A DNA stretch of 64,000 nucleotides from Planctomycetota bacterium (GCA_026004615.1 BPJM01000001.1:443482-507481); one strand, 5' to 3'; shown: positions 6,012 to 25,740, numbered from the stretch's first letter. Made by a program: numbers and translations. The notes: generated by a model not told the origin, from the letters alone.

Positions 6012-6062
6012 GGGTTCCAGCGGCCCCTCGACCGTTACGGGTGCCCCCGCTCCGCCTGGATC

Positions 6063-8906
6063 TCAGCCGTCATCGCTGACCTCCAGGCAGCTCGAGATGC
6101 CCAGATCATCGAGGATCCGGCGAAGCTCGGCCGCCAGGTGCCCCGCAAGGTCGCGTTGGACCGTGACCGCGAACTCCACGTTGAGCTTCAGCTCCGAGCC
6201 CGTCCTTCGCAGCACCGGAACGAGTTTGGTCCCCAGGCGGTTCCAGACGTCGGGGGGAACGGCGCCCGACAGGCGAATGGTGCTCGTCTGGACGCCGGGG
6301 GCCGGCTCGAGCCCCGGCTCCGGTGCGGGGCAGGGCTCCGGTGCGGGGCAGGGCCCCGGTCTCGATAGGGGAGGCGGGGGTTCCGCTCCCCCTTCCGGAA
6401 CAGGCGCCGGAATGCCCGCCTCGAGCGCCTGCGCCCTGGCCCTGGTCAGCAAAAAGACGTCCGGCTCGAAGGCGACCTCGTCGTGGGGGACCGGCTCGCC
6501 GAACCAGATCCGCTCGTAGGTTCCGTCCGCCTTCTCGCCCGAGGCGAGGCCGAACTCGCCCCTTGCGACGAACTCGACGATCTTCTCCCGCAGGGTCTTC
6601 TCCGGGTCGAGGAGCCTCGTCAGCGAGCCGTTCAGGAAACTCTGGCGCAGGCTGGCGAGCGGCCACGCGCCCGACTCCTTCAGGGCAGGAGGCCAGTTCC
6701 TCTCGATGTAGCCCGCACCGACAGACTCGTTGAGCAGGGCTTCGGACTTGAGCGCGGCGATGACCCTGCCGCACAGGGTCTCGCCGCTCGAGGAGTGGCC
6801 GGCCCCGAGGTCGATGGTCTTGAGGCCGTCACCCTCAGCCTCGCTCCCTGTTCCCCCGGGGGAGGCTTGGGGTGAGGGCTCATAGATCACAGCGAACCGG
6901 TAGCCCGCCCACACCTCGTCCTTCGCCGCCTCCTCTGCGGCCGCGACCTTCGAGCGGAGGCCGGCGCGATCCGACCCGTCGAACTCACCTCCCAGCGTAC
7001 CCTCGTCCACTTCCCGGGCTACTCGCTTCCACGCGAGCCACAGCTCCACCTTCTCGCGCAGATCCCGCCCCGGCTTCTTGAGGCACCACACGAGCGATCC
7101 CGGGTACAGGCGCGGGGATCTGCCGCGCTGCCTGGTCCATTCCGCGATCTGGCTCCTCAGCGGTCCGCCGCCCGTCCACTCGGCCTCCGGTTCAGCGACG
7201 ACCAGCGTGAGCCTCGGGGTGTCCGGGACGTCGGCTCCGTCCCGGGGGAAAAGCGTCACGGGAATGCTCGCTCCCCGGCGGAACTCAACCTCGACGAGCT
7301 TGCGCATCGCAGGCTTGATCTCGGTCTCCTCGTCCAGCGACGCCCGCCGGTCGTTCACCACCTTCTTCATCGTGGGCTGGTGGCTGATCTTGAACCCGTC
7401 CGCGCCCACCTTCCGGATGAAGTAGGACCTGTCCTCGAGCGCGAACGCGGCGCTGTCCACCGAGGTCGTGTCCACCTGCGGCTCGCCGAGGGCGAAGCGC
7501 AGCTCCGGCAGGTGCGCCACCTTGTCGGTCTGGCCGCCCGAGGACTCGAAGAGGATCGCCGTCCCCACGCGGCGGTGGATATCGCGCAGCGGCCCTTTCG
7601 TATCGGCATCCAGGGCGCGGGCGTGCGAGGTTTGGCCTGCTATGTCTGCCTCGATCGCCGCGACGAGCCGGGACTCCCCGAGCTGACCCAAAATCGTGCT
7701 CCGGAACCCCAGATCGTGAAGCGGGGCGGAGCCGAGCGTGATGAGCGGCTCGCGCCGGGCGGTCGTGAATCCGTCCCGATATGCCCAGGCGATCCACTGC
7801 GCGAGCATCGCCAGGGTCCCGCGCGTCTGCTGGTACTGGGGCAGCGCCTGCCACTTTCTCTGGAAGACCGAGAGCGTGGCCGGGTGGAAGGGGTAACACG
7901 CCTCGAATCGGCTGCGGAGGTACTGGCGGGCCTTGGCCTCCGTCGCCACCGCGTCCACCGCGGTCCATTCCCGCGGCAGCTGGGCGCGCCGTTCGAAGCA
8001 CCAGTCGGCGAAGGCCTTGGCCACGTTCTTCCTGACCCGCTCGCTTCCCAGGTCCTCGAACAGCCGCCGCCGGACGACCTCGCTGATCTCCGTCTCGTCG
8101 TTGGCGATCAGGTCCCTGGCGACGCGGCGCACGACCTTGGTGATCTTCTCCTGCCACTGCAGGTCCCAGTCGGTCATCTCGACCTGGCTGCGCGGGAGGC
8201 TGATCACCGCCGCGCCGTGGGTCGTCCCGGTCGTGGCGACCGTCAGATTCTGGATGAAGGCATGGAAGGATTCCGCCATCCCGCGGTGCCGGTTGAGGAA
8301 GTTGAGCACCTCGTCGAACAGAAGCAGCACGGGGGCGTTGGCCGCCTGAAAGACGCGGGCGATGGACTCCGTTCCCGGAGGGATCGTCTTCGCCGCGGTC
8401 CCCAGCGCTTCGACCCCCGCGTCACCCGCGAGCTGGCGGGCGAGGTCGATCCACGGGGTCTCGCGGCCCTCCTGCGGGTCCCAGGCGTTGCCGACGAACA
8501 CGCCCACGCGCGCCTTGGGAACCGAGGAGAGGCCGGCCTCCCGGATCAGATCGGCGACCCCCGGGCACCCGTACGCCTTGTCGCCGCTCGTGCCGAGGTG
8601 GTAGAGGGCGGTGAGCGTGTGCGTCTTGCCGCCGCCGAACTGGGTGATCAGGGTCAGGACCGGGGCGGTGTTGTCGGTCCTGCCGGAGAGCCTGCGCAGC
8701 ACCATGCCCGCGTGTTCCCGAAGCGCGCGCGTCCAGCACGTGCGCGCAAAGAACTGCGCGGGATCCCGATAGTCCTCGGGGGCCGTTCCGGCCACCACCT
8801 GCTCGAGGGCGATGGCGAACTCGTCCGGGTTGAAGGACCGTCCCTCCCGGACTTCTCTGCGCGGGGTTGCGACTTTGTACCAAGGTTCCATGTCATTCCC
8901 TGCCAC
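6063..8906 (-). CDS. DUF499-family (COG1483) P-loop ATPase, 947 aa, intact
   Basis: ORF 6063..8906. The N-terminus reads PWYKVATPRREVREGRSFNPDEFAIALEQVVAGTAPEDYRDPAQFFARTCWTRALREH...LITQFGGGKTHTLTALYHLG, which is the signature opening of DUF499 proteins. No internal stops. It contains an 18-nt perfect tandem duplication near the 3' end (6318-6353, PCPAPE x2). Confidence 0.9.
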   Translation of the reverse strand: MAGNDMEPWYKVATPRREVREGRSFNPDEFAIALEQVVAGTAPEDYRDPAQFFARTCWTRALREHAGMVLRRLSGRTDNTAPVLTLITQFGGGKTHTLTALYHLGTSGDKAYGCPGVADLIREAGLSSVPKARVGVFVGNAWDPQEGRETPWIDLARQLAGDAGVEALGTAAKTIPPGTESIARVFQAANAPVLLLFDEVLNFLNRHRGMAESFHAFIQNLTVATTGTTHGAAVISLPRSQVEMTDWDLQWQEKITKVVRRVARDLIANDETEISEVVRRRLFEDLGSERVRKNVAKAFADWCFERRAQLPREWTAVDAVATEAKARQYLRSRFEACYPFHPATLSVFQRKWQALPQYQQTRGTLAMLAQWIAWAYRDGFTTARREPLITLGSAPLHDLGFRSTILGQLGESRLVAAIEADIAGQTSHARALDADTKGPLRDIHRRVGTAILFESSGGQTDKVAHLPELRFALGEPQVDTTSVDSAAFALEDRSYFIRKVGADGFKISHQPTMKKVVNDRRASLDEETEIKPAMRKLVEVEFRRGASIPVTLFPRDGADVPDTPRLTLVVAEPEAEWTGGGPLRSQIAEWTRQRGRSPRLYPGSLVWCLKKPGRDLREKVELWLAWKRVAREVDEGTLGGEFDGSDRAGLRSKVAAAEEAAKDEVWAGYRFAVIYEPSPQASPGGTGSEAEGDGLKTIDLGAGHSSSGETLCGRVIAALKSEALLNESVGAGYIERNWPPALKESGAWPLASLRQSFLNGSLTRLLDPEKTLREKIVEFVARGEFGLASGEKADGTYERIWFGEPVPHDEVAFEPDVFLLTRARAQALEAGIPAPVPEGGAEPPPPLSRPGPCPAPEPCPAPEPGLEPAPGVQTSTIRLSGAVPPDVWNRLGTKLVPVLRRTGSELKLNVEFAVTVQRDLAGHLAAELRRILDDLGISSCLEVSDDG

Positions 8907-10052
8907 CTGCCGGGGTCTGTCCGGTCAGGAGCGAAAAGTCCTTGGGCGTGAGCTCCTGCGTCGTCTGGACGAACCAACCCCACGAACGGGACGGATCCCT
9001 GCCCCGAAAGGCATCGAGCCGGCCCCGGAGCTTCTCGTCGATGGAGACCGGGCGATCGAGGTACATTTGGACCTGCTCGAGGGTGATCGTCCAGGGGTAG
9101 CTCTCCTTTTCCCGCACGGCGGATGCGGTCTATGCTCCGGGCCGCTCTTCACCCGGGCGTGCGCGACGACCCCCGTTCCGCTCGCGTAGAACGCGATCCA
9201 GTCCCCCGCCTGGATCCGGGTTCGGTGGGGGGTGCGGTCTCCAAAAGCGTAGACGCCCTCGGAAAGCAGCCTTTGGATCTTTTCGGCCGCCGAGGAATCC
9301 GCATCGCCGCTTACCGGAGTCAGCCAGCAGGATCCGCCGGTCCTGCGCTCCTGCTCGGTACCGGCCGGCATCGCCGGTTCGAGGGCCTGCCCCTGGGCTG
9401 TCGCCTGGGCAACGATCGTCGAAACGACGCGCACGAGCGGACTGATGCTCGGCTCCGGGGGTTTCAGGAACCGCAGGACATCCGCATGGGGGACATCGTA
9501 ATCCCTCATGAGCTCCGCCAGGGAAAGGAGTTCCTCCACATCGATGACGCGGAGCTGTTCCGTCCTCTTCTCGGCACGGATCGCGTTCTCGATCTGTCTG
9601 GTGTCCGAATCCCGGCGGCCGATGGCGTAGAGTCCGATGGCCTTGTCCCAGCTCGGGATCCGGCGCGCGGAGATCAGCTCGTCGACATATCCCACGAGCG
9701 TCTTCGTTGAAACCGCGTAGGTCTCCGTCGTCTTCACCTCCACGACCACGTGGAACTCGGACGGGGACGTCCACAGGCCGTCGAAGCCGACCTCCCCCCG
9801 GATCCCCCGGTACCGGCCGTACTCGACCTCGAATCCGAGGAGTTCGCCCAGGCGGTTCACGAGGTCCTGGAGGGCCTTGTTGTACTGCTCCTCCGAGGCC
9901 TGGAGGCACTCCTGGACGTAATCCCTCAGAAGGCCGACATCTCCGACCTGGCTTCGCAGGAACCGCCGAAAGCGCTGGCGAGGGGTGTCCTCGCCGGGAC
10001 AGTCATCCAGTTTTCCCACCAGGCTCAGCACCTCCTTGAGCTTCACGGCCAT
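8893..10052 (-). CDS. PD-(D/E)xK restriction-endonuclease-like N-domain fused to an EVE/PUA-like C-domain; one frameshift near 9118-9140
   Basis: ORF 8925..10052 shows GFDGLWTSPSEFHVVVEVKTTE (a D...E-x-K nuclease core) and then IQAGDWIAFYASGTGVVAHARVKSGPE. The reading continues in ORF 8893..9117 (REKESYPWTITLEQVQMYLDRPVSIDEKL...WGWFVQTTQELTPKDFSLL), which is EVE-like. The stop at 8893 overlaps the DUF499 start (8906) by 14 nt. Confidence 0.6.
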
Positions 10053-10109
10053 GTCAGGACCTCCTCCGGCGGGGCGGCACGCCGATACCAGCTTTCCATC
10101 ACGCTCCTC

Positions 10110-11060
10110 CTACGGTCTCTTCATGCGTGCGAACAGCTCGGCCGCGGATTTCTTCAGCCGGCCGAGGTTCGCGTATGCGACCGGCTCGAACCCCCTCTGG
10201 CACGAATACATGCGGTAGCGGATGCCGTCGGTCACGACCACGTCCCGGGGCGTACCGAGCGCTTCGAGGTACCCCTTCGCCTGCTCCAGCGCTCCTTCCA
10301 CGCCCGCTCCCAGGCGCTTCGCCTCGATCACCAGCTGGCAGTTCTCCGGCGTCCGTGGCAGGGCCCGGAACACGGCCACGTCGATGTACCGCCACTTGAC
10401 GGCGATGCGTTCCGGCGGCCAGCCCAGCGCCCGCAGGAACGGAACCACGAAGTGCGCGACCATCTCGTCCTCGCTCGGGTGCTCGCCGAACGCCTGCCGA
10501 TCCCCCACGCGCAGGACGAGGTCGTTCGCTTCCGCAACGAGGCCTCGGAGTGCGGCGGGCACGTCCTCGAGGGGCGGTTGCTCCGGCGGTAGATGCGGCA
10601 AGGCGGCCGTCTGCCAGTGCGTGGGAGGCGAATGCAGGAAGCGGTGGGTATAGTCGAGAACCTCTTCGCTCCAGACGCGCGACAGCCGCCCAGGATTGGC
10701 ACCGAAGACCGGCTTGCCGAACTCATGGGGTTCCGGCAACGGCTGCCAGCGCACGCGGCGCGCGTGCTGGAGGTCCCAGCCGTTCACGTCGTCGAACTGG
10801 TTCAGGTAGAGGTAGTCGCTGGCGACGATCCCGACCGCGCAGATCCTCGAGATCCCGGTCCGTAGCAGGAAGACGTCACCGACCTGGACCTCGCTGGCGA
10901 AGCGGCGGACGAAGCCGCCTTCGAACTCCTGGTCGTCCCGCTCCGCGTTCCAAGGGCCCGCGTCCCCCGGGCCGATCAGGCCGACACCGTACTTCAGGAA
11001 GACGCCGTCATAGGAGCGCACAGCCGGCCCGCCCGAGATCTGCCAAGTTGCGCGCGTCAC
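10110..11060 (-). CDS. Two-domain protein, 316 aa: N-terminal beta-rich putative sensor domain + C-terminal HsdR_N-like PD-(D/E)xK nuclease domain
   Basis: Part of ORF 10110..11270. The likely start is GTG at 11060, overlapping the upstream TGA (GTGA at 11057-11060). The C-terminus reads MVAHFVVPFLRALGWPPERIAVKWRYIDVAVFRAL...CQLVIEAKRLGAGVEGALEQAKGY, resembling the type I HsdR N-terminal nuclease domain (D...E-A-K). The N-terminus (WQISGGP...GVGLIGPGDAGPW...VGDVFLLRTGISRICAVGIV) resembles the small sensor modules fused to McrB/type IV enzymes. The N-domain assignment is tentative. Confidence 0.55.
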   Translation of the reverse strand: MTRATWQISGGPAVRSYDGVFLKYGVGLIGPGDAGPWNAERDDQEFEGGFVRRFASEVQVGDVFLLRTGISRICAVGIVASDYLYLNQFDDVNGWDLQHARRVRWQPLPEPHEFGKPVFGANPGRLSRVWSEEVLDYTHRFLHSPPTHWQTAALPHLPPEQPPLEDVPAALRGLVAEANDLVLRVGDRQAFGEHPSEDEMVAHFVVPFLRALGWPPERIAVKWRYIDVAVFRALPRTPENCQLVIEAKRLGAGVEGALEQAKGYLEALGTPRDVVVTDGIRYRMYSCQRGFEPVAYANLGRLKKSAAELFARMKRP

Positions 11061-11680
11061 TGTGTCGTCCGTCTTTGCGCGCCGAGTTGGCGCAGATGCG
11101 CGCGCAGGTCGTCGAGAAACGCCTTGAGCGATGTATCCTGCTTGCCTGCGCGGAACCAGTCCATCTTTTCGACGAGGTCGCGGGCGAACTCGATCCCGCC
11201 GAGGGTGAACGGGTGGCCAGCCATCCGCACAGCACTGGCGAGTAACTGCTTGTAGTGACCCCTTGTGCACTTCTTTTCACCGACCACGGGGCGGTGACCG
11301 ACCACATCGTTGAATGAATCCGGATCTGCGAGGTACCAGCGTTCCACGTGGGGATCCGGGCAGGCGGCAACCACTCTTCCCTGAAGTTCCTGCGTGGTCG
11401 CACTCGCGATCTCTTTTTTCTTGTCTGCGAACGTCGTACAGTTGCCGTCTATGGCTACGACCACGAGCTCCGGCGGCGCCTCCCCGAAGGCACCCCTCTG
11501 TATCAGCTTCTGGTACGTCCCGAACTCCGCGATGGCCCGGCCGTGTCCGCCTCGCGCGGAGCGAACGCGGAGTTTGACCTTCACCTGCTCCTCCTTCGCG
11601 ACCCGCTCCACAAGCGGCACCAAAAACTCTTCGTGCGCACGATCTTCCACAAACAGATCGATGAGGAGAACGTCACTCAT
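11057..11680 (-). CDS. DUF4276/TOPRIM-like small protein, 207 aa, partner of the upstream ATPase
   Basis: ORF 11057..11680: MSDVLLIDLFVEDRAHEEFLVPLVERV...PELVVVAIDGNC... It has an N-terminal acidic E motif plus a later D-x-N/D motif, as in OLD/TOPRIM-like DUF4276 proteins. The start overlaps the ATPase stop by 8 nt. The family call is from memory. Confidence 0.6.
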   Translation of the reverse strand: MSDVLLIDLFVEDRAHEEFLVPLVERVAKEEQVKVKLRVRSARGGHGRAIAEFGTYQKLIQRGAFGEAPPELVVVAIDGNCTTFADKKKEIASATTQELQGRVVAACPDPHVERWYLADPDSFNDVVGHRPVVGEKKCTRGHYKQLLASAVRMAGHPFTLGGIEFARDLVEKMDWFRAGKQDTSLKAFLDDLRAHLRQLGAQRRTTQ

Positions 11681-12908
11681 CCAGCAGCCCCCTCATGAGC
11701 ATGCTCTCGAAGAGGCCGTCCTCGGTGCCCGCCGTGAGGGCGGCGGCGATCTCCTGGTCCTCGACCACCGCACCGGTGACAGCGAACGGTTTGACGATCG
11801 TCTCCCCGCCCGCGCGGTGGACATTGAAGAGCCCGATATCCGCCGGCCTGGAACGGGCGTGCTTGAGCACCGCATCGCAAAAGAGCGGCGAGTGCGTCGT
11901 GACAACGACCTGGCGGTTCTGCTCCAGGGCCAGCGAGAGCAGAAGCTGGGCGATCAACTCGAGTCTGCGCGGGTGGACGCCGTTCTCGGGCTCCTCGAAG
12001 CCGACGAGGGAGCCGCCCCACGGGTTGACGGCGATGGCGCAGAGCGCCAAAACACGGAGCGTTCCCTCCGAAACGATGCGCGTGGAGTAGTCGACGCCGG
12101 CCTGCCGGATGAGGACATCGAGCGTGCCGCGCCGCTTGTCCAGATCGACGGCCAGCTCCTCCACGCTCGGGACGATCGATCGCAGGGTGCGAAACACCGC
12201 AGCAAAGCGCTTCGGCTGCTCGGCCCGAAGCCGATAGAGGAACGGCGCGATGTTCTCGCCGAGCACGCCGATATCGCGCACGTCGGATGGAGGCCGCTCC
12301 GCGCGCATCGCCACGCGTGGATCGAGGTAGTAGATACGCCACGCCGTCAGCTCCTGGCGCACGCGCTCCAACGCGCGGTACTCCACACCCCCGAAGCGGC
12401 TGTCCGACAGGACCGTGTGGTTCAGTCCTAAGGGCTCAGTACGGGGGTGTGCCGGCTTGCTTTTCCGGCGGATTCGCAATTCCCCATCGACCTGTTCGAT
12501 TTGGGGTCTGCCCTTCGGTTCGCCTTTCGCCCCAAGTTGGGCCAGGTACTCATCGGCCACCGTCAGTCTTCCCGATGCGGGTTCGATTCGAACGGCAAGC
12601 CGGTACCGGTACGAATCCCTCCCGTCATCGACATCTGCGCTCAGCTCGAAGCGAGCGTCGGAACAAGCCAGAAGTGCCGGAAGCCCCTGGGGAGGGAAGG
12701 AGAACGCCTCGATCTGCCGGCCACGAATCGGGTCGCTCAGCGCGTCCGCGAGCGTGCGCTCCGTGCCGAGCCGCGACAGGGCCAGGATCGCATCGAGGAG
12801 ATTGCTCTTCCCAGCGGCGTTGGGTCCGAAAAGCACCGCAAAGCGAGGGAGGTCCACGCTCAGGTTGGCCAGGGACTTGAAGCCCTTGACGGTCAGCTTC
12901 TTCAGCAT
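11673..12908 (-). CDS. ABC/SMC-fold ATPase (AAA_15/AAA_21 class), 411 aa
   Basis: Internal ATG at 12908 within ORF 11673..14321: MLKKLTVKGFKSLANLSVDLPRFAVLFGPNAAGKSNLLDA (Walker A), LVGFEEPENGVHP (Walker B/D-loop), VVVTTHSP (H-loop). GAGGAGG lies 4-10 nt upstream. Everything 5' of 12908 in that ORF is out-of-frame methyltransferase sequence. Confidence 0.85.
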   Translation of the reverse strand: MLKKLTVKGFKSLANLSVDLPRFAVLFGPNAAGKSNLLDAILALSRLGTERTLADALSDPIRGRQIEAFSFPPQGLPALLACSDARFELSADVDDGRDSYRYRLAVRIEPASGRLTVADEYLAQLGAKGEPKGRPQIEQVDGELRIRRKSKPAHPRTEPLGLNHTVLSDSRFGGVEYRALERVRQELTAWRIYYLDPRVAMRAERPPSDVRDIGVLGENIAPFLYRLRAEQPKRFAAVFRTLRSIVPSVEELAVDLDKRRGTLDVLIRQAGVDYSTRIVSEGTLRVLALCAIAVNPWGGSLVGFEEPENGVHPRRLELIAQLLLSLALEQNRQVVVTTHSPLFCDAVLKHARSRPADIGLFNVHRAGGETIVKPFAVTGAVVEDQEIAAALTAGTEDGLFESMLMRGLLDE

Positions 12909-12918
12909 CGAGACCTCC

Positions 12919-15900: not shown

Positions 15901-15930
15901 GGCCAGGCGCTTGCAGTTTTTGGCAATCAT
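12919..15930 (-). pseudogene. DUF1156 (COG1743) Zn-ribbon DNA methyltransferase, full length (~1004 codons) but readable only across many (I estimate 8 or more) frame changes
   Basis: Start [52 protein letters not shown] (ORF 14605..15930). Further blocks follow in different frames. They are [23 protein letters not shown] (ORF 15431..16012), [43 protein letters not shown], which is the SAM motif (ORF 15078..15926), and [22 protein letters not shown], the Zn ribbon (ORF 14930..15262). Next come VVFAHKTTEGWEALLSGLIRGGWTITGSWPIATE (ORF 13343..14452) and then blocks in ORF 11673..14321. The true end GPDFLRLANALSALYPKGSEEKRLLDAMLLAVPR-TGA is at 12919. Confidence 0.85.
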
Positions 15931-17123: not shown

Positions 17124-17126
17124 TGG

Positions 17127-17410
17127 CTACTTCGCCCTCTCCCAATCACCGCGAGTTCCGTACGTCGCACTCTCCTCACGAACCCCCATTGGTTTCGTCA
17201 GAGCATCCACCGACAGGCAGTAGTGGGCTACCTTCGTGACCTCGCGCCAGTCGAAGCGCGCAGGGTCCTTGATCGGTTCCTGGAGCTGCGCCTTGGTGGC
17301 GCCTGCCTGCGCCGCGCCCCGGGACGCGGCAGGGAGGCCGTTGGTGACCAACGCAGAGCGAGTAGCAGTCGTGTCGGTCTTGGGCCGCGCGGCGGTCCTT
17401 CGGGTGGGAC
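17127..17410 (-). pseudogene. Orphan duplicate of the helicase 3' end (DUF3883 tail), with indel/frameshift
   Basis: ORF 17127..17351 reads ...QLQEPIKDPARFDWREVTKVAHYCLSVDALTKPMGVREE, against the helicase end ...QLQEPIKDPARLEWHEVTKVAHYYLSVDAMTRPMQVREE. DNA similarity extends to about 17410 (PKDRRAAQDRHDCYSLCVG vs PNERRVAEDRRDCYWLYIV in another frame). Confidence 0.8.
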
Positions 17411-17419
17411 CGCATTGTC

Positions 17420-17568
17420 GGGCGCGATGTGAGGCGCTGCTTGGCCAACCGAGGTGCAGCGTCGAGGGATGTCCGTGCCGGATGCTTTTTTTCCCGCGGC
17501 GCGTCCCGCGAGACTTCCGCGATGGGGAAGTCCAATTCAGCGAGGCGTTTGGGGGATTTGGGGATCAT
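17420..17568 (-). pseudogene. Orphan DUF1156 5' fragment (~50 codons, frameshifted), fused directly to the helicase 3' fragment
   Basis: ATG at 17568: [28 protein letters not shown], then after a frame change [15 protein letters not shown]. This is homologous to the first ~50 codons of the DUF1156 gene at 15930. The ATG overlaps the HNH gene TGA (ATGA at 17565-17568). Confidence 0.8.
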
Positions 17569-18059
17569 CGCTGCGCCCCTTCCCAAATCTCGCGGATGTC
17601 GGTGCACCGTCGCTTCAGCGTGAAAGCAACGGTGTGTCGTTCGTACGCCATCTTGAGAAAGAGACCGGCGGGGATCCGGGGCAGGTCGTCCTTGTTCCGT
17701 CCCAGCTCGTCGCACCACCAGGTGACAAGATCCTTGTCGTCTTTCGACCGCGCGCACTCGTCGCAGGCGTGGACGAGGTTCTGCATGCCGACAGGCCCGC
17801 CCAACCGGCGGGGCACCACCTCCACCGGCACCGTCGTCCCCTGACTTCCGCAAAACACGCATAAGCCCGGCTGCTGAGCCAGCTTTTGAATCTCTCGATC
17901 ATACTCCGACATGCGGATCTCCCCGCTCTTCAACCGCTTGTATTGGTCGATGATGAAGCGGTAGTTGGCCTTCTGCCCGGCAGACACGGCGATCACCAGC
18001 TTGGCGTAGTAGTAGAGAATGAAGTCGCCAACGGTTCTGGGAACGGCTGGGGACGGCAT
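17565..18059 (-). CDS. HNH-like (beta-beta-alpha-Me, Cys4 zinc) protein, 164 aa, with non-canonical catalytic positions
   Basis: ORF 17565..18059: CVFCGSQGTTVPVEVVPRRLGGPVGMQNLVHACDECARSKDDKDL matches the CxxC...DHxxP..GG...NL...CxxCNxxK HNH layout. It has EV in place of DH and A in place of the N after the second CxxC. The start is 3 nt after the RadA-like stop. Confidence 0.7.
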   Translation of the reverse strand: MPSPAVPRTVGDFILYYYAKLVIAVSAGQKANYRFIIDQYKRLKSGEIRMSEYDREIQKLAQQPGLCVFCGSQGTTVPVEVVPRRLGGPVGMQNLVHACDECARSKDDKDLVTWWCDELGRNKDDLPRIPAGLFLKMAYERHTVAFTLKRRCTDIREIWEGAQR

Positions 18060-18062
18060 GGC

Positions 18063-19340
18063 TCAGCCCTCGCCAAACAGATCCGGCCAGAGCTTTTGCA
18101 GGAGGCCTTCCAGGTCCGCAACCGGAACGATCTCCACCGATTCCCGGACCGCCGGTCCGCCTGCGTCGGGGCGCATGCTTGCCAGATCGGAGGCGCACTC
18201 GGCCGCAATATAGAGTCTCCTGATCTTCCCCTCCTGTGGCCCGGTCAAGAGCTTCGCCAAGGCAGCGAGATACATGCGGTCGGGCGGCCGGATCCGGCGC
18301 GTGAGATCTAGTTCCCCAACGAACAGCGCGCCTGCCGGAACCGGCCGCTGCAGGTAGGAGCTCAAGAGCGCCACCGCAATCGGCAGATCCAGCTCCTCTC
18401 GGTAGCGCTGCTGTCGGGGCACGTAGCAGTTGATCTCGTAGGAGAGATCCGTCAGGTCGACCTCCTTGATCGTGCTCAGAATGCTGAGCAGCTGCTTGAC
18501 CTTCTTGCCCGGCAAAAAGGGAGCGTTTAGTTCCGGGCGCGAACCATAACGCGGCAGCGTCACGGAAGCCTGGCCCTCGGCGAACTCTTCGCCGATTCCA
18601 CTGTAACCCAGGACGGCAGCGCTCTTCGCGGCCCGATGCGGCGATTCCACCAGGCGGCCGCGCTGGTCCATCATGAGGACGAGCGGATCCAGGACGGCCG
18701 GTCCGAACCGATTCTTGGGCACGAAGAAGGGCCGCAGACGAAAGGCCCGCCGGATGTACATGACGCAATCCACATTGTGCTCCAGGTCCTTCGGGCCGGC
18801 GATCTGGCCTTTCTTGGTGACGTGCCCGATCAGGATCGAAACCAATCCCTGTGCCTTGGCGTTTTCGCCGAATTCATAGAGCGCCCGGTACTTGCGGGAT
18901 GCGGTCGAGGCCAGCCCCCGGCCCTGCACCGAGTCGACGACGATCGCCTGAATGCCGTGGTAGGCCTCTCCTTCCGTGAGCACGCGCCGGGCGAGAAAAC
19001 GCGGCAGCGCGTCGACGTCCTCGATTGCGTCGTCGAGGAAGAAGTTCTCCAGAATGGACTTCGGAAGGCGCCCGCCGGCGTCGCCGTGAATGCGGATGAT
19101 GGCGCGCTTGAGGTCGGCCAGCCCCTGCTCGGTGGTGAGGTAAAGCGACCGGATTCCCTGCCCGGCAAAGTCGCCCAGCACCTGCATGGCGAGCGTCGTC
19201 TTCCCGATGCCCGGTTCGCCCGCGACAAGGTAGACCCCGCCCCGGATGAACCCGGGGCCGATGGCCTTGCCCAACCAGGGCAGGGTTGAAACGGGAATGC
19301 GCTCGGGCCCCTTGTCTGTAATGTCCTCGATCTTAGGCAT
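18063..19340 (-). CDS. RadA/Sms-like protein lacking the N-terminal zinc finger: RecA-fold ATPase + Lon-protease-like C-domain, 425 aa
   Basis: Internal ATG (19340) of ORF 18063..19412: MPKIEDITDKGPERIPVSTLPWLGKAIGPGFIRGGVYLVAGEPGIGKTTL (Walker A), AIVVDSV (Walker B) and FFVPKNRFGP (the RadA-specific KNRFG motif). The C-terminal DLPIAVALLSSYLQRPVPAGALFVGELDLTRRIRP is the RadA Lon-like P domain. Confidence 0.85.
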   Translation of the reverse strand: MPKIEDITDKGPERIPVSTLPWLGKAIGPGFIRGGVYLVAGEPGIGKTTLAMQVLGDFAGQGIRSLYLTTEQGLADLKRAIIRIHGDAGGRLPKSILENFFLDDAIEDVDALPRFLARRVLTEGEAYHGIQAIVVDSVQGRGLASTASRKYRALYEFGENAKAQGLVSILIGHVTKKGQIAGPKDLEHNVDCVMYIRRAFRLRPFFVPKNRFGPAVLDPLVLMMDQRGRLVESPHRAAKSAAVLGYSGIGEEFAEGQASVTLPRYGSRPELNAPFLPGKKVKQLLSILSTIKEVDLTDLSYEINCYVPRQQRYREELDLPIAVALLSSYLQRPVPAGALFVGELDLTRRIRPPDRMYLAALAKLLTGPQEGKIRRLYIAAECASDLASMRPDAGGPAVRESVEIVPVADLEGLLQKLWPDLFGEG

Positions 19341-19414
19341 GGTCGTCCTGCAGATACCGGCGGCAGTCTGCCTTCGGGTGCGGCTGCATCCGCATGTGGG
19401 GCGTCGGATCAAGC

Positions 19415-19626
19415 CGCGGGATCGCGGGGCGGTGCGACTCGCACAGGCCTGGCCAGAGGAGCGCCGGCACCGCCGCCCGGCACGGCGCCAGCGCCCGCCT
19501 GGCCCACCCCAGACGCAGCGTCCAGGGATGCCCGTGCCGGATCGACCTCTCCCGCGCCGCGTGCTCCGAGGCCTCGGCGGTCGGGAGGTCCACCTCGGCC
19601 AGCCGCTTGCACTCCTCGGGGATCAT
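19415..19626 (-). pseudogene. Orphan DUF1156 5' fragment (~68 codons)
   Basis: ATG at 19626 (ORF 19333..19710): [65 protein letters not shown]. This is colinear with the DUF1156 start at 15930. Similarity is lost near 19415, 75 nt before the RadA-like start. The ATG overlaps the upstream TGA (ATGA at 19623-19626). Confidence 0.85.
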
Positions 19627-20228
19627 GCCGTTTGCTCGATCAGACGCCTGAGGCAGTCGAGCGCGCGGCGGAGGCTCTCCGAGCGCTCGGCCGCCACCGC
19701 CGGGCGCCACTTCGTCTGCACGTACTCGATGAGACGCGAAGAGTAGGCCGGGCCGACCGAGCGCCCACTTCGCTCGCGCGGCACCATGTCCTGCCGAATC
19801 GCGCTGCGCCGCGACCGGCGCGCCAGCTCCACCATGGCGACCTTGGCGTTCGGCAGGCTCTCTGGGTTATCGGGGACCTTGGCTTGCGCGACCCCGAGGT
19901 AGCCGGCCAGGGATGCACGATCCGCCATCAGCCACGCCTCGACCTGCCGCACCGCGACGCGAAAGCAAAGCAGCGGAGCGGGATTGGGAAGCCAGTTCTC
20001 TCGCAGCGGCGGCGCGCAGTCCGCGTCGCTGTCGAGGTCCACGAGGACCAGCCACGGCGTGCGCCGGGCAGCGTTGTTGTAGCCCTGGATCTTCCTCCGC
20101 AAGTCCTGCTTGCCGTTCTGGCCGTATACGCGCCCGGCCTGCCCGCCTGCGCAGGCGATCAACTTCCGCGCCACCACCGCGTCCAGGGGCCCCTCGACGG
20201 CCGCATGGATCACCACGGGGTTCGGCAT
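19623..20228 (-). CDS. TOPRIM-like (DUF4435/DUF4276 class) small protein, 201 aa
   Basis: ORF 19623..20228: VIHAAVEGPLDAVVARKLI (conserved E) and PWLVLVDLDSDADC (DxD), the two acidic motifs of TOPRIM/OLD-type nuclease domains. The start is 2 nt after the ATPase stop. Confidence 0.65.
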   Translation of the reverse strand: MPNPVVIHAAVEGPLDAVVARKLIACAGGQAGRVYGQNGKQDLRRKIQGYNNAARRTPWLVLVDLDSDADCAPPLRENWLPNPAPLLCFRVAVRQVEAWLMADRASLAGYLGVAQAKVPDNPESLPNAKVAMVELARRSRRSAIRQDMVPRERSGRSVGPAYSSRLIEYVQTKWRPAVAAERSESLRRALDCLRRLIEQTA

Positions 20229-20230
20229 CG

Positions 20231-21382
20231 TCAGAGATCTCCAAACAGCGGGAGCCGCTCCGCGCGCTCAGGCCGTGTCTTCGGGATGACGGCGTCGGCC
20301 AGCGTCAGGCCGCCGTCCAAAAGATCGCGGATCTCGCGGTGCGATGCGGCAATGGTCACCTCGGTGCCCTCGCGGCCGGGAACGAGCAGCACCACCTCGT
20401 CGAGCCCGATCCCCTCGTCCCGCAGGAGCTCCGGCGAGTGCGTGCTGAGGAAGATCTGCCGTCCCGTCCGGCGCTGGACGCGCGCCAGCATCTGCGGCAG
20501 CACACGGACGATCCCAGGATGCAGGGAGAGCTCCGGTTCTTCGAGCAGCAGCGGCCCCTCCTTTTCCATCGCTGCCCACAGGAGTCCCATCAAGCGAAGG
20601 GTCCCGTCCGAGAACTGCTCCTCGGTCTGCCACGCGCCTCGCGGCCGCCAGTGAGCGTACTTGCCGCGAAGGTGTGGTGTGCCGCGAGCGTCGCGCCAGA
20701 GCTCGACCTCCTCCAGTTGCGGGACCGCGACGCGCAGGGCTTCCCGGATGCGCCGCAGGCGCGCGCTCCGCGTCCGCTCCGGCGTCCTGGCCACCTGCTC
20801 CAGGAAGTCCCCCCCGAAGGGATCGTTCGAGCGGCCCACGGAGCGGTCGGGCTCCCGGACGAGCTGCGGGACGATGTGCAGGTAGCGGATGGATGCGAAG
20901 AACGTCGCGACCTCACGGAAGTCCCGATTCACGTTGACCTGCTCGAGGAAGGTCTGGCTGAGGCGCGCGGGGTCGGCCTCGTCGTCCTTGTTGGGCCGCT
21001 CGAGAAGTGTCTCGCCGCCGCGCAGCACGCGCTCCTTGCGCAGGAGCGCTCGCCGCTGTTGGTCCTGGCTGAAGGCGACCTCGTACGTCCAGCGCGGCCC
21101 GTCGTGTTCCCTCTGCAGCTCGACTGCGACCTCGATGGCCGGGTAACGCCGCGCGGCCAGGCATCGGATCGCGCTCACCCCACCACGGCGACCGACGGCT
21201 TCCTGAAAGCCGCCGCCCGTCGAGGCGAGATCCCGCAGGAAGCGAAACGCATCCAGGAGATTCGACTTGCCCGAGGCATTGGGACCGACGAGGAACAGGC
21301 GGTCGCCGATCTCGATCTCGACCTCGGCGAAGTTCTTCCAGTTCGTCAGGCGAAGTTTGCGGAACTTGAGGGGAGAGCTCAT
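20231..21382 (-). CDS. ABC/SMC-fold ATPase (AAA_15/AAA_21 class), 383 aa, paralogue of 11673..12908
   Basis: Internal ATG (21382) of ORF 20231..21490: MSSPLKFRKLRLTNWKNFAEVEIEIGDRLFLVGPNASGKSNLLDAFRFL (Walker A), LLLEEPELSLHP, IFLSTHSPELL. The ATG overlaps the helicase TGA (ATGA at 21379-21382). Confidence 0.85.
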   Translation of the reverse strand: MSSPLKFRKLRLTNWKNFAEVEIEIGDRLFLVGPNASGKSNLLDAFRFLRDLASTGGGFQEAVGRRGGVSAIRCLAARRYPAIEVAVELQREHDGPRWTYEVAFSQDQQRRALLRKERVLRGGETLLERPNKDDEADPARLSQTFLEQVNVNRDFREVATFFASIRYLHIVPQLVREPDRSVGRSNDPFGGDFLEQVARTPERTRSARLRRIREALRVAVPQLEEVELWRDARGTPHLRGKYAHWRPRGAWQTEEQFSDGTLRLMGLLWAAMEKEGPLLLEEPELSLHPGIVRVLPQMLARVQRRTGRQIFLSTHSPELLRDEGIGLDEVVLLVPGREGTEVTIAASHREIRDLLDGGLTLADAVIPKTRPERAERLPLFGDL

Positions 21383-24300
21383 GGTTCCTCCGGTGTCCTG
21401 TACGGCGGGGCTTCCTCGCGCACCTGCATCGGTCGCGTCATCGCATCCACCGACAGGTAGTAGTGGGCCACTTTCGTGACCTCGTGCCACTCGAGGCGCG
21501 CAGGGTCCTTGATCGGCTCCTGGAGCTGCGGCATCGCCGCGCAGTTCGTGACGATATACAGCCAGTAGCAGTCGCGCCGGTCCTCGGCCACGCGGCGTTC
21601 GTTCGGCGTGAGAAGGATGGTGCCCGTGGCCTCCGCCAGCCCCTTCACCTCGATGAGGCGCAGCTCCCCGGAGTTCAGGTCCAGGCTCGTGAGGTCGTAG
21701 CCCAGGTTCTTCTCGTGGACGTCATAGACCTGCCGGCCCTGGGCGCGCTCGTAGTCCATGACCACGCGCATGGCGATGGCCTCGGTCTCCGGGTTGGGCT
21801 GGAGTCGCCGGACTTCCGGCGTCTCGCGCTCGGGGTGGGGCAGAACCAGGACGCTCGCCATGCGTTCCACGCCTTGTAGCGTCAGCGAGCGCTGCCGCTC
21901 CAGCTCCTTGCGCCGCCGCTCCCGCCGCTGGCGCAGCTCCTCATGCCGGGCTTCGGCCTGGGCGAGACGCCCTTCCGCGCCCTGTTCCCCGCGATCCACG
22001 GCTTCCTGCGCCCGGCCGATCTCCTCGTCTGCCCGCTGCAGCAGCTCGGTGAGGGAGAGCTCGACGTGGGCCGCAATGCGCTCCACCTCGGCCAGCCGCT
22101 CCTCCCGCGTCTCCTCCAGAAAGGGCACGAGCGCATGCGTGTGGATCCACGCCGCCGCCTCGGGAAGCATGGCCACCGCCGGGAGTGTTTGCGGCGCCTC
22201 CGCCGGCGTCAGGTCACCCAGCAGGCTCGGCTCGCGCAGGCACGGCTCCCTGTCCTCGGCGATCTCGACGGCGAACAGGCGTTCGTGGACCACCTGGCCC
22301 ATGCCATCGACGATGCGGGCCCGGTAGAAGTCGATGCGCGCGGGCGCGTCGTGCTGAAGCGAGTAGAACGTCGCTCCCTTCCCGAAGGTCTCGAGCGCCT
22401 GCGCGTAGGTATGCCGCCGGATCGCCTCGAACAGGGGGTGGCCCGGCGTGACCCATTCCAGGTTGTGGGTCTCCGCCGTCTCGCGATCCGTCGAACAGCG
22501 AGGGTACCTGGCCGCCAGTGGAGGCAGCTTCCAGCTCGGCTCGCGCTCGTAGCGGCGCAGCACCGACGGCGTCCTGCCCGGCTCGAAGGTATGGGGAAGG
22601 CGCGGAACCGTCTTGAGCGTCAGGGGTACAAAGTCGGCCGCGTCCCGGATGAAGCGAGCAATCGTCTCGGGCACGACTCGCCGCTCTTGAGCCCGCGCCC
22701 GGCGCTCGATGAGCATCTCCAGATTGAGTTTCTTCGATGCGAGCCCCTCGAGCGCGTTCTGGCAGATGGCGCGGAACTGGCGCTCGTCCACGTTCCTCAG
22801 GAGCCGCTCCTCGAGGTCGGCCTCGCCGAGCCGCCCCGCGTAGTAGTCGCGGAGCACACGCTCCACGTGGGCCGCAGGCAGGATCTCGCCGACCACGTTG
22901 AAGACGGCATCGTCGTCGAGGGCGTCGCGGATCTCCTGGAGCTTCTCCAGCAGCCGCTGCAGCACCCGGCCCTCGATCGTGTTCGTGGCCACGAAGTTGA
23001 AGATCAGGCAGTCCTTGCGCTGGCCGTAGCGGTGGATGCGGCCCATGCGCTGCTCGAGCCGGTTCGGGTTCCACGGGATGTCGTAGTTGAACAGGATGTT
23101 GCAGACCTGGAGGTTGATGCCCTCGCCCGCCGCCTCGGTCGCCACCAGGATCTGGATCGCCCCCTCGCGGAACTGCTGTTCGGCATGAAGCCGCGTCCCT
23201 GGCTCGTCTCGCGATCCCGGTTTCATTCCGCCGTGGATACAGCCCACGCGAAAACCCCAGGACTCGAGCCGCTCCACGAGGTAATCCAGCGTGTCCTTGA
23301 ACTCCGTGAAGATGAGGAGCCGCTTCTGCGGGTGGTCGAAAAAGCCTTCCTGCTGGAGCAGCTCTTTCAGCTTCGAGAGCTTGGCCTCCACGCCGGAGTC
23401 CTCGACCGTCCGGGCCTGGGCGGCGAGTTGTCGGAGCTCCTGGACCTCCTCCCGGACCTGCTGGGCGTTGCCCGCGAGGGTGATGGCTTCCAGCGTTTCT
23501 TCCAGCCTCTCGCGCTCGCTTTCCTCCATCTCCTCCAGCTCTTCAGGGTCGGGAAGGTCCGGCGGCGCCAGTCGAGCGAGCTCATGGGCTCGCTTCAGCC
23601 CCTCCTCCAGGCGCCTGGCCCGGTTCTCGAGGGAGTGCCGCATCGCGTACGTGCTGGAAGCCAGCCGCCGCTGATAGAGGGACATCAAGAAGCCGACGGC
23701 GCGCGCGCGGGGGTCGTCGCCCTGGGCCGCAGCCCTGGCGCTCTGCCGCTTGACGAAGCGCGTGATGTCGCGGTAGAGCTCGAACTCCGCCCCGTCGATC
23801 TGGAACTGCACGGTGTGCGGGATGCGCTTCGTGAAGATCTTCCTGGCCACCCACGCTCCGTCGGACCGGCGCTCCGGGAAGTACACCATCGCCTCCTTCG
23901 TTCGGCGCAGGTAGAAGGGCGCGCGCCGGCGATCCATGGCCTCGCGGATGGACCGGACGTCCGCATAGGCGTCCGCATCGAGGAGCTGCAGGAACAGGCT
24001 GAAGTTGCGCGGATCGCCCTTGTGCGGCGTGGCGGTGAGCAGCAGCATGTGGTCGGATGTGTCCCGCAGCAGCTCGCCCAGCTTGTAGCGCAGGCTCTTG
24101 TGGGTCTGGTCGGCCGCCGACATCCGGTGCGCCTCGTCGACGATGACCAGGTCCCAGTGGACCTGCCGAAGCCCGGGAAGGATCTCCTTGCGCTTGGCCA
24201 GGTCGAGCGAGGTGATGATCTTGTTTCGCTCCAGCCACTGGTTGACGCCGAACTGGTCGCGGATGGCGTCGCCCTTGAGAACGAGGAACGTCGCGTCGAA

Positions 24301-24819
24301 CTTCTCCTTCAGCTCCCGTTGCCACTGGAAGGCGAGGTTGGCGGGACAGACGACGAGAATGCGTTCGGCCAGGCCCCGCAGTTCCAGTTCGCGGATCAGC
24401 AGCCCGGCCATGACGGTCTTCCCAGCCCCGGCGTCATCGGCAAGGAGGAACCGAACCCGGGCGAGCTTGAGCAGGTAGTCGTAGACGGCCTCGAGCTGAT
24501 GCGGCAGCGGGTCGACCCGGGAGATGGAAAGGCCGAAATAGGGGTCGAACTCGTAGGCGATCCCGAGGGAGTACGCCTGCAGTCCGAGTCGAAGCAGGCG
24601 CCCGTCGCCGTCGTAGCTCTGCCTGGTGGCGATGACGGTGAGCCGCTCGAGATCGCGCCTGGTGAGGGTGACCTTGCGAAACCGCTCCGACTCGGTGCCG
24701 ACCAGACCCACCACCCACGTGTCGGGCCCGTGCGCCTGAACGGTCTCCACCCGCATCGGCTCGCTGAACAGGGGTCCCGCGAGGATCTGGCCCTCGGTGA
24801 GCGCCCTTTGCTCACGCAT
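21379..24819 (-). CDS. SNF2-family helicase with C-terminal DUF3883 (nuclease-like) domain, 1146 aa, intact
   Basis: ORF 21379..24819: LADDAGAGKTVMAG (motif I), VIVDEAHRM (II), LLLTATPHKGD (III), ILVATEAAGEGINLQ...YDIPWNPNRLEQRMGRIHRYGQ (V/VI). The C-terminal LGYDLTSLDLNSGELRLIEVKGLAEATGTILLTPNERRVAEDRRDCYWLYIV matches DUF3883. Confidence 0.9.
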   Translation of the reverse strand: MREQRALTEGQILAGPLFSEPMRVETVQAHGPDTWVVGLVGTESERFRKVTLTRRDLERLTVIATRQSYDGDGRLLRLGLQAYSLGIAYEFDPYFGLSISRVDPLPHQLEAVYDYLLKLARVRFLLADDAGAGKTVMAGLLIRELELRGLAERILVVCPANLAFQWQRELKEKFDATFLVLKGDAIRDQFGVNQWLERNKIITSLDLAKRKEILPGLRQVHWDLVIVDEAHRMSAADQTHKSLRYKLGELLRDTSDHMLLLTATPHKGDPRNFSLFLQLLDADAYADVRSIREAMDRRRAPFYLRRTKEAMVYFPERRSDGAWVARKIFTKRIPHTVQFQIDGAEFELYRDITRFVKRQSARAAAQGDDPRARAVGFLMSLYQRRLASSTYAMRHSLENRARRLEEGLKRAHELARLAPPDLPDPEELEEMEESERERLEETLEAITLAGNAQQVREEVQELRQLAAQARTVEDSGVEAKLSKLKELLQQEGFFDHPQKRLLIFTEFKDTLDYLVERLESWGFRVGCIHGGMKPGSRDEPGTRLHAEQQFREGAIQILVATEAAGEGINLQVCNILFNYDIPWNPNRLEQRMGRIHRYGQRKDCLIFNFVATNTIEGRVLQRLLEKLQEIRDALDDDAVFNVVGEILPAAHVERVLRDYYAGRLGEADLEERLLRNVDERQFRAICQNALEGLASKKLNLEMLIERRARAQERRVVPETIARFIRDAADFVPLTLKTVPRLPHTFEPGRTPSVLRRYEREPSWKLPPLAARYPRCSTDRETAETHNLEWVTPGHPLFEAIRRHTYAQALETFGKGATFYSLQHDAPARIDFYRARIVDGMGQVVHERLFAVEIAEDREPCLREPSLLGDLTPAEAPQTLPAVAMLPEAAAWIHTHALVPFLEETREERLAEVERIAAHVELSLTELLQRADEEIGRAQEAVDRGEQGAEGRLAQAEARHEELRQRRERRRKELERQRSLTLQGVERMASVLVLPHPERETPEVRRLQPNPETEAIAMRVVMDYERAQGRQVYDVHEKNLGYDLTSLDLNSGELRLIEVKGLAEATGTILLTPNERRVAEDRRDCYWLYIVTNCAAMPQLQEPIKDPARLEWHEVTKVAHYYLSVDAMTRPMQVREEAPPYRTPEEP

Positions 24820-25632
24820 GCGGCTCTCTTTCTTCCGATTCAGAGGTTACGGCGCAGCCCCTACGACTCCATGCCTCACCAGCCAAGTTGGGATTGTAGT
24901 CGATCCGCGCCTCGATCTCCGAAACGGCGGCGCAGGAGGGTTTCTCGCCCAGCTCCGCCCCGTAGCCGTCGCCGGCGATCGACCGGGCTACCACGAAGGC
25001 GCCTCTCGATCGAGCACTCTCTCCCTGCTCGGAACGTTGGCCTCGAGCACCTCGCGCTCGTCCACCGCCGCGACGGGCGCCAGGGTGTCGATGTCGCCGG
25101 GACGAACCGGAACGATGCGGACGAAGTCGTCCCGCCGCTCGTTCCTGTGGCCGTGGGACCTGGCGAACGGTACGAGGTACGCGCGGGCCCTGGGCTGCTG
25201 CTCGCCGGTCTTTTCGAGCAGGCCCTGGCCGAGCACGCAACCCACCTCCTTCCGGGCGAGGAGGAATGGTTCGAACCGGTCCTGCACCCGGCGGCGGCTG
25301 GCGGCCACGGAGGCGAAACAAGGTCGTCGAAAATACCCTCCTGCACCCTCGCCATGGCCGACCCGCGTCCCTGACACCGCAGCAGCCCCGCCACGACCCC
25401 GAGGCCCGTCCGGGGACAGTCTCACGGCTGGCCCTCTGGCTCCGGTCCCACCTGGCCGGCTGGTCACGGTGGATCGCCCGATCTTTCGGGAACGAGACGA
25501 CCCCTTGCAGGCAGCGCAAGGAGCTCCGGCCTGTGGGCCCGCCACAGCGCCTGCCCCGCCCATGGGCCTGTCCTCTGTTTCCACAGCGGGTCGTTCCTCG
25601 ACGCTACCCCGAGCTTCCCCCAGGCATCGCAC
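24812..25632 (-). CDS. Small upstream ORF(s) of unknown function preceding the helicase; probably frameshifted near 24990; true start uncertain
   Basis: ORF 24988..25632 has a coding-looking part from ...VQDRFEPFLLARKEVGCVLGQGLLEKTGEQQPRARAYLVPFARSHGHRNERRDDFVRIVPV... The tail of ORF 24812..25519 (FVVARSIAGDGYGAELGEKPSCAAVSEIEARIDYNPNLAGE) ends 8 nt inside the helicase start. The N-terminal ~90 codons are Gly/Arg-rich and may be untranslated leader. The first residues (GSVEER) resemble the start of ORF 3674..4081 (RSVEER). Confidence 0.3.
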
Positions 25633-25740
25633 GAAACGATCGCGGCCGGAGGAATCTGACCACGCCGTCGGCCCGCGAGGCCACAGCCCCCAGCCTCGCA
25701 GGGGTTGGGCAGCCGATCCGCGCCGGAAGCACCGCCATGT
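25560..25740 (-). repeat. Copy B of the conserved leader/terminus sequence (copy A at 4020..4200)
   Basis: See copy A for the shared blocks. It lies between the malQ stop / right direct repeat and the first island ORF, so it is at the 5' end of the minus-strand gene array. Confidence 0.6.

Follow-up and report, generated by a model that had tools for sequence, protein, structure and literature searches.

An Hma anti-phage locus with stacked variable cargo and an hmaB gene unreadable as one protein as deposited, on an island at the malQ 3' end in a hot-spring Planctomycetota genome

What might explain why three genes of a BREX-like defence neighbourhood, a helicase, a DUF1156 methylase and a DUF499 ATPase, lie in one co-oriented array with five or six other gene modules lodged between them? 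The array is found in a 64,000-nucleotide (nt) stretch, here called the window, of the hot-spring Planctomycetota metagenome-assembled genome (MAG) KatS3mg102, where the gap between helicase and methylase genes is 5,448 nt and that between methylase and ATPase genes 4,027 nt. The region is an Hma anti-phage locus, a relative of BREX that also goes by the name of Type-1 DUF499-centred BREX-related (BR) system; the Hma system was described by Payne et al. 2021 and renamed as the Type-1 DUF499-centred BR system by Rakesh & Krishnan 2026 (PMC12839542). The explanation that we regard as highly probable is that an Hma locus occupies an island at the malQ 3' end, that it carries variable, stacked and co-oriented cargo, and that its hmaB gene cannot be translated as one protein as deposited. 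A prediction made previously from the DNA alone (the original prediction) had recognised a recurrent BREX-like neighbourhood and had assigned DUF1156, DUF499 and SNF2/DUF3883 to it; the assignments are upheld by Pfam and PADLOC matches, and the neighbourhood matches the Hma profiles.

The evidence for the assignment lies in the core genes, all of which are on the minus strand. The hmaA gene (21379-24819) is intact and encodes an SNF2 helicase with a C-terminal NOV_C/DUF3883 PD-(D/E)xK nuclease, matching the PADLOC HmaA profile with an E-value of 1.5e-179 over residues 7-1091 and the Pfam families SNF2-rel_dom, Helicase_C and NOV_C. HmaA aligns in a single ungapped frame to 80 homologues at 74-86% identity, and the GAGKT131, DEAH228 and GYD...IEVKG motifs are kept, with motifs I, II and III and the D...ExK residues conserved. 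At the other end of the array, hmaC (6063-8891) encodes an intact DUF499 ORC/STAND-like ATPase without a HEPN fusion, possesses a GGGKT Walker A motif, matches PADLOC HmaC (E 6.6e-92) and Pfam DUF499 (E 3.7e-12; 6063-8906), and aligns in one frame to at least 35 loci at 62-85% identity. Between them, hmaB (12919-15930) encodes a DUF1156 N6-adenine methyltransferase that is full length but broken in its reading frame, with homology to Pfam DUF1156 (E 1.8e-18; 14605-15930) and PADLOC HmaB (E 1.7e-28). The related loci used for comparison come from a scan of species-representative genomes, which gave 80 loci from more than 12 phyla with HmaA 74-86% identical, and in which hmaB and hmaC sit downstream of hmaA; the order A-B-C on one strand is the same as in at least 35 of them. 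Plasmid searches found only distant Hma loci, at no more than 45% identity.

Compared with published Hma, or Type-1 BR, systems, the three core families, their order and their strand are all the same and the profile matches are strong. The differences are that hmaB is unreadable as deposited, that HmaC lacks the frequent HEPN fusion, and that the inserts of 5.4 kb and 4.0 kb exceed the published curation limit of three embedded genes per gap; published Hma sets also left out pseudogene-containing loci. The MANTIS system (Type-2 BR; bioRxiv 10.64898/2026.09.23.753747) likewise unites a DUF1156-type methylase and a DUF499 ATPase with an effector that is both helicase and nuclease, and the NCBIfam "antiphage" models for DUF499, DUF1156 and PLD-helicase give sub-threshold matches. 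However, the effector in the window is an SNF2 helicase with a PD-(D/E)xK nuclease rather than a PLD-helicase, the NCBIfam PLD-antiphage model matching the helicase part only (175 bits against a cut-off of 1100), and DUF3780/MtsB was not found in Pfam scans; DUF4435 and HEPN_Apea were also undetected in Pfam scans of the locus. Membership of BREX was considered and rejected, as the only BREX-type gene present is a remnant of BrxC/PglY (DUF6079) just upstream of hmaA (24988-25332, minus strand; Pfam E 6.8e-24, PADLOC BrxC E 1.7e-23) that covers only positions 222-334 of the 1,231-position profile, 113 in all, and PglZ is absent. In the closest relative found (locus L089), a 388-amino acid (aa) BrxC fragment precedes hmaA (5129-6295) and a PglZ fragment follows hmaC (16878-17654), and that Hma locus looks like one nested inside a decayed BREX locus, of which the window keeps the BrxC piece only. 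The BrxC fragment before hmaA in both loci, together with the PglZ fragment after hmaC in L089, argues that this Hma lineage once lay inside a BREX-type locus.

How much of the array is core, and how much is cargo? Across the related loci that contain both genes (54), hmaA and hmaB overlap by 15 nt at one extreme and lie 7,487 nt apart at the other, and the gap between hmaB and hmaC is 18 to 3,869 nt (35 loci). The 172 open reading frames (ORFs) embedded in the 54 loci fall into 89 clusters, 63 of which are singletons. Nucleotide matches from the window to other loci cover the core genes; across the cargo such matches are few or lacking. The differences in gap size, ORF clusters, nucleotide matches and the gene content of L089 all indicate that the cargo is variable, as had been proposed in the original prediction and is now borne out by tabulation of the 54 loci.

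Could every gene in the array nevertheless be an obligate and invariant part of a single multi-gene system? The tight stop/start coupling along the whole array would suit that view, and most of the coupling is as originally described: all genes lie on the minus strand; ATGA is present at 21379-21382, 19623-19626, 17565-17568 and 15927-15930, and GTGA at 11057-11060; an 8-nt overlap, ATGAGTGA, is present at 11673-11680; and spacers of 2-3 nt are found at 20228/20231 and 18059/18063. The proposed 14-nt overlap at 8893-8906 does not stand, since it needs a GTG start for hmaC at 8906 and an upstream frame that is reached only via a frameshift near 9100; homologues of hmaC begin with the ATG at 8891, a start separated by 1 nt from the TGA at 8893-8895. 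Against an obligate system, L089 manages with DUF8426 as the sole gene between its core genes, hmaB starts 15 nt before the hmaA stop in L006 and L040, leaving no room for any cargo, most cargo families are singletons across the 54 loci, and homologues of the 398-aa cargo gene described below also stand alone, all of which makes the proposal extremely improbable. The same low probability attaches to the suggestion that the locus is the methylation-associated defence system MADS (Maestri et al. 2024), which is also a methylation-linked multi-gene system and possesses an OLD-like ATPase, MAD3. All three OLD-type ATPases give weak, sub-threshold MAD3/mad3 matches (PADLOC E 5.8e-21 and 1.2e-27; NCBIfam MAD3 75 and 130 bits, where the cut-off is 420), and a RadA-like cargo protein matches mad8 (E 1.3e-4). 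Every one of these matches scores far under the curated cut-offs and concerns a generic ATPase domain, whereas no mad model matches hmaA, hmaB or hmaC, to which the Hma models match with E-values down to 1e-179; with weak ATPase-domain similarity as the only resemblance, the correspondence to MADS originally suggested is ruled out by the profile searches.

Why is the methylase gene broken, when its neighbours are intact? Both ends of hmaB share one frame, yet there is no continuous open reading frame, and searching with intact HmaB proteins by tblastn splits the gene across all three frames; the deposited sequence does not translate into one protein. When frameshifts are allowed for, aligning it to intact HmaB proteins takes 20-22 of them, between 15774 and 13031, and the corrected protein is 76% identical to the HmaB of locus L003 over residues 1-1020. 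Nucleotide alignment with four intact genes reveals 27 window-specific insertions or deletions (indels) of a length not divisible by three, nearly all of 1 nt, in both directions and outside long homopolymers. No frameshifts are present in hmaA, hmaC, HEC-01A/B or DUF8426, judged against homologues, or in malQ, which together exceed 12 kb. A Planctomycetaceae long-read MAG (L070) has about 24 frameshifts in hmaB (14189-17250), at positions unlike those of the window; in the same MAG, hmaA aligns without a change of frame and hmaC is broken once.

The window's hmaB is therefore either a pseudogene or the site of a local consensus error in what is probably a low-coverage PacBio HiFi MAG. We lean slightly towards consensus error, arising from a single low-quality HiFi read or from merged strain alleles, in which case the Hma locus would be fully functional. 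The damage consists almost purely of 1-nt indels in both directions, and no excess of substitutions is detectable in hmaB: the similarity of corrected HmaB to intact HmaBs is as predicted by HmaA identity, with a residual of +1.6 +/- 5.4 points, and nucleotide identity to L089 is about 80%, equal to that of hmaA and hmaC, but with 60 gap openings versus 10-11. The indel frequency of about 0.9% matches a Q20 read, and the source MAG, from Katase hot spring sediment, is a metaFlye assembly for which HiFi reads were accepted above Q20 (PMC9671151). No exact protein match to HmaA, an hmaB ORF, the second cargo ATPase, its partner or HEC-01B, several of them from cleanly delimited genes, was obtained in a collection that includes the read-based Logan assembly, and the DUF8426 protein is present in NCBI sources only; either observation would fit low coverage, or a different start-codon call. 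The L070 hmaB, with its frameshifts at other positions, also speaks for assembly error. It is less easily reconciled with that reading that every indel lies within the hmaB coding sequence and none in the validated coding sequence around it, which exceeds 12 kb, that no intact copy above 77% identity was found among 5.8 billion proteins, and that other decayed pieces of the island are confirmed by a read-derived contig. The reading of hmaB as a true pseudogene, with the core surviving as a scaffold or through HmaA alone and the cargo doing the defending, is quite possible, although we do not favour it. It would account for the restriction of 20-27 frameshifts to one gene and would sit well with the other decay products of the island (two gene-end scars, the BrxC fragment, a frameshifted cargo gene and the degraded SNF2 helicase at 763-3557), with the retention of all catalytic motifs by HmaA, and with published observations that Halomonas HmaA alone protected E. 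coli from T4 and that 15% of hmaA genes lack hmaB (PMC11232893). The pseudogene reading is countered by the substitutions, for neutral decay that produced about 27 indels should have added roughly at least 100 of them and none are detectable; slow neutral decay was rated unlikely for this reason. Old decay would furthermore require continuous selection on, or recent replacement of, the intact hmaA and hmaC, which have no frameshifts in 6.3 kb.

How did the cargo arrive? Two gene-end fragments, or scars, lie at cargo boundaries within the hmaA-hmaB gap. Scar 1 (19333-19626, minus strand; homology 19438-19626) is a truncated copy of the hmaB 5' end in an open frame of 97 codons, its ATG overlapping the HEC-01B stop and its stop overlapping the ATG of the RadA-like ATPase gene. 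It copies the first approximately 63 hmaB codons, with 83-84% nucleotide identity to 15744-15932, and matches Pfam DUF1156 (E 7.6e-11) and PADLOC HmaB (E 2e-12). Scar 2 (17154-17577, minus strand) is composite, an hmaB 5' piece (17445-17577) joined to an hmaA 3' piece (17154-17403) that represents the last approximately 80 codons of hmaA and is 86% identical in nucleotides to 21413-21530. An independent read-built contig (L083) matches 19531-15888 at 100%, and so scar 2 and the covered part of scar 1, up to 19531, are real. Gene-end fragments were found (E <= 1e-4) in 12 of the 54 hmaA-hmaB gaps, which amount to 146 kb, whereas control DNA taken upstream (542 kb) has none; every one of them lies on the coding strand, and copies of the hmaB 3' end are present in some hmaB-hmaC gaps. 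Within scar 2 the pieces stand in an order opposite to that of the native junction, the hmaB 5' piece first and the hmaA 3' piece after it; this order recurs in L020, from the same hot spring, and with different breakpoints in L030. As L020 is homologous across the scar 2 junction itself (15160-15563; 76% over 386 nt), the junction represents one old event, although the cargo on both sides differs; the same fragment is thus common to two Planctomycetota MAGs.

These fragments suggest that cargo has been exchanged and stacked by recombination between Hma loci, with the conserved ends of hmaA and hmaB providing the homology. Units composed of an hmaA 3' end, cargo and an hmaB 5' end would be inserted by single crossover or unequal recombination, so that cargo is stacked rather than replaced and truncated hmaA and hmaB ends are left at the cargo boundaries. 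A circularised or tandemly duplicated unit of this kind would, after a single crossover, produce the reversed fragment order, and fragments that persist may serve as additional homology arms for later swaps. The truncated ends at cargo boundaries are not mentioned in the accessible text of Payne et al. 2024 (bioRxiv 10.1101/2024.01.29.577857) or Liu et al. 2024 (PMC11232893), and one of these two studies, according to the same text, left out pseudogene-containing loci. The region 15773-15863, in the DUF1156 motif region of hmaB, is 94.5% identical in DNA over 91 nt to hmaB on Bradyrhizobium plasmids, an unusually high cross-phylum conservation and a possible crossover point.

The cargo genes, all on the minus strand, begin directly after hmaA with an OLD-type ABC ATPase (20231-21382; PADLOC HEC-01A E 5.1e-161, Pfam AAA_21 E 4.5e-37) and its DUF4276/TOPRIM-like partner (19623-20228; PADLOC HEC-01B E 3.3e-66, with a weak Pfam DUF4276 match). 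This pair is the named Hma-embedded candidate HEC-01, and HEC-01A also directly follows hmaA in L004, L037, L049, L066 and L076, and lies about 1.3 kb after it in L027. Beyond scar 1, a RadA/Sms-like KaiC-type ATPase with a ChlI/Lon-like C-terminal domain (18063-19340) matches Pfam KaiC ATPase (E 3.2e-11), AAA_25 and ChlI, and NCBIfam RadA below its cut-off (E 1.1e-31); it possesses a GEPGIGKT Walker A motif, lacks the RadA zinc finger, and has no homologue in the 80 related loci. It is followed by what may be a small HNH-type endonuclease (17565-18059), to judge from weak matches to Pfam HNH_5 (E 5.5e-4) and to IscB/Cas9d HNH domains.

Between scar 2 and hmaB, with its stop overlapping the hmaB ATG, is a gene for a 398-aa protein of an uncharacterised family (15927-17123). 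Its GC content of 55%, the minimum of the window and far below that of its neighbours, suggests a recent foreign origin. The family has 306 homologues and an invariant R273-x4-H278; no Pfam (40 members scanned), PADLOC, NCBIfam or PDB sequence match was obtained, and the structural model, confident with a predicted local distance difference test (pLDDT) score of 85.8, has no fold match in PDB or among the viral folds of BFVD. A HEPN label was considered and set aside, its basis being the invariant R-x4-H motif alone. Homologues lie directly before hmaB in L084, L085 and L086, and stand alone in a Nitrospira genome (L087). In L084 (8261-11880) the order is that of the window, an hmaA NOV_C fragment, the 398-aa gene and hmaB; there, only fragments of hmaA are left and hmaB breaks off after 235 aa.

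The hmaB-hmaC gap opens with a second OLD-type ABC ATPase, HEC-01A-like (11673-12908; PADLOC HEC-01A E 1.4e-55, Pfam AAA_21 E 3.3e-30), which has a 71% identical homologue after hmaB in L020. In this second pair (11057-12908), the DUF4276-like partner (11057-11680) matches HEC-01B only weakly (PADLOC E 5e-4) and Pfam DUF4276 just under its cut-off (E 3.1e-6). Next is the DUF8426 protein (10110-11060; precomputed PF28530), whose gene directly precedes hmaC in nine related loci and in L089. It combines an EVE/YTH/ASCH-like PUA domain with a PD-(D/E)xK nuclease; the structural model (pLDDT 86) resembles, by Foldseek, the modified-base readers VcaM4I, PH1033 and YTHDF2 and the HsdR N-terminal nuclease domain, and D227...E246-x-K248 is invariant, from which the protein is predicted to be a modification-sensing nuclease. 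The last cargo gene (8893-10052), with a PD-(D/E)xK-like N-terminal and an EVE-like C-terminal domain, contains one frameshift near 9100, recognised from a phase switch in GC content at third codon positions and from reading both frames; the corrected protein has a weak EVE match (E 0.0032) and no homologue in the related loci. KatS3mg102_0366 and KatS3mg102_0361 are 100% identical to two of the cargo proteins. The array was originally counted as 12 intact or near-intact genes, a figure that has to be revised: hmaB is broken by its 20-22 frameshifts, the frames 19626->19333 and 17568->17176 lie in scars 1 and 2 and duplicate, in truncated form, the 5' end of hmaB and the 3' end of hmaA, 24988-25632 is the BrxC/PglY fragment, and 8925-11060 is two genes, those at 10110-11060 and 8893-10052, the latter frameshifted.

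Where does the locus sit in the genome? It forms an island of about 19.8 kb (6012-25773) of lower GC content, inserted at the malQ 3' end: GC content is 70-78% in the window, 55-72% in the stretch from about 6 to 25.8 kb, where all long ORFs are on the minus strand, and 76-78% in the flanks. The malQ gene (25807-28185; Glyco_hydro_77 E 1.2e-83) is a single open frame with full-length Pfam domain matches. Its 3' end plus 33 nt form the right copy (25774-25999, minus strand) of a flanking direct repeat of 232 nt, the left copy of which (5782-6011, minus strand; 94.8% identity) is a displaced malQ 3' end at the left island edge, and L089 homology ends exactly at that edge, at 6012. No integrase or tRNA was found near the island, and promoter and terminator scans and tRNA and Rfam searches of the locus were uninformative or empty. 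On the side opposite malQ the island's neighbour is a GH57 gene (4793-5722), which covers only profile positions 106-209 of 291, ends in a weak match to a Mutator-family transposase, and may have been truncated by an old insertion. A second repeat pair (4027-4175 and 25567-25724; 78% over 160 nt) has its right copy just inside the right island edge and its left copy 0.6 kb beyond the GH57 fragment, upstream of further defence-gene debris. Downstream of the island, the degraded second SNF2 helicase (763-3557, minus strand), HmaA/DpdE/DrmD-like, is broken up, its parts lying in several frames and some of them not in their proper order, with a Helicase_C piece at 148-1464. A 21-nt coding tandem repeat at 61863-62180 (about 15 copies, 78% matches), within ORF 61858-62538, is unrelated to the Hma locus.

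The nesting of cargo in Hma loci is well documented. Payne et al. 2024 examined 1,485 Hma systems, of which 62.7% showed embedding (96.7% co-orientation), and named the HEC candidates for it; Liu et al. 2024 found embedding in 66.5% and spoke of a hotspot at which defence genes insert. The landing-pad idea of the original prediction is right, and it had appeared in print before (Payne 2021 and 2024; Liu 2024; Rakesh & Krishnan 2026); the window contributes one more example, not a new concept. The cargo resembles the published Hma-embedded candidates in being nested between hma genes and co-oriented, with HEC-01 directly after hmaA and, as in Halomonas, an AAA_21 ATPase with an unannotated partner between hmaB and hmaC; unlike them, the 398-aa family, the RadA-like/HNH pair and DUF8426 are not among the candidates named in the accessible text. 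The arrangement is reminiscent of PrrC in the EcoprrI type I restriction-modification operon and of BrxU in BREX, back-up defence genes nested co-oriented in methylation-based systems, although in those cases one gene is embedded and its functional coupling has been shown, whereas several modules are stacked here and coupling is putative.

The working model of the core is taken from published work on the Hma family. HmaB would methylate adenines and so mark self DNA, HmaC, as an ORC/STAND-like ATPase, would load or regulate the complex, and HmaA, in which an SNF2 motor is joined to a PD-(D/E)xK nickase, would attack unmarked invader DNA. The five or six self-contained, co-oriented modules between the core genes may constitute back-up layers of defence: two pairs of OLD-type ABC ATPase and DUF4276/TOPRIM protein, the RadA-like ATPase with the HNH nuclease, the 398-aa protein, and two predicted modification-sensing nucleases (EVE/PUA with PD-(D/E)xK). 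The overlapping stop and start codons of the cargo, together with its co-orientation, are the sole observations in favour of the putative expression platform of the original prediction, and they suggest that the modules are probably expressed from one transcript as such layers. Several observations weigh against this account of the locus. With the deposited hmaB unreadable, the methylation step cannot operate here unless its frameshifts prove to be errors. In published E. coli tests, no protection was seen with HEC-01. Homology from which a function might be assigned is weak or absent for the RadA-like/HNH pair, for the 398-aa protein and for the 8893-10052 gene, and recombination is deduced from the fragments, no circular or intermediate form having been observed. 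A joint reading, in which Hma loci take up cassettes without a recombinase and the 398-aa family is a new stand-alone defence gene with a fold unseen in PDB, is tentative, and we think it somewhat improbable.

The locus in the window is a heavily loaded Hma member, partly decayed or partly mis-assembled. What is new in it, the gene-end fragments at cargo boundaries and the uncharacterised cargo, provides modest leads. The hmaB gene carries a warning, that gene-sized patches of indels in long-read MAGs can mimic pseudogenes. The truncated hmaA and hmaB ends, present in about one fifth of related loci, offer a testable trace of the route by which cargo is embedded, a matter left open by the published studies. 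Loci in which a gap holds more than three embedded genes, or in which a core gene is disrupted, are those that have been filtered from published surveys, and the cargo filtered out with them, such as the 398-aa family, the RadA-like/HNH pair and DUF8426, constitutes an untapped list of defence candidates.

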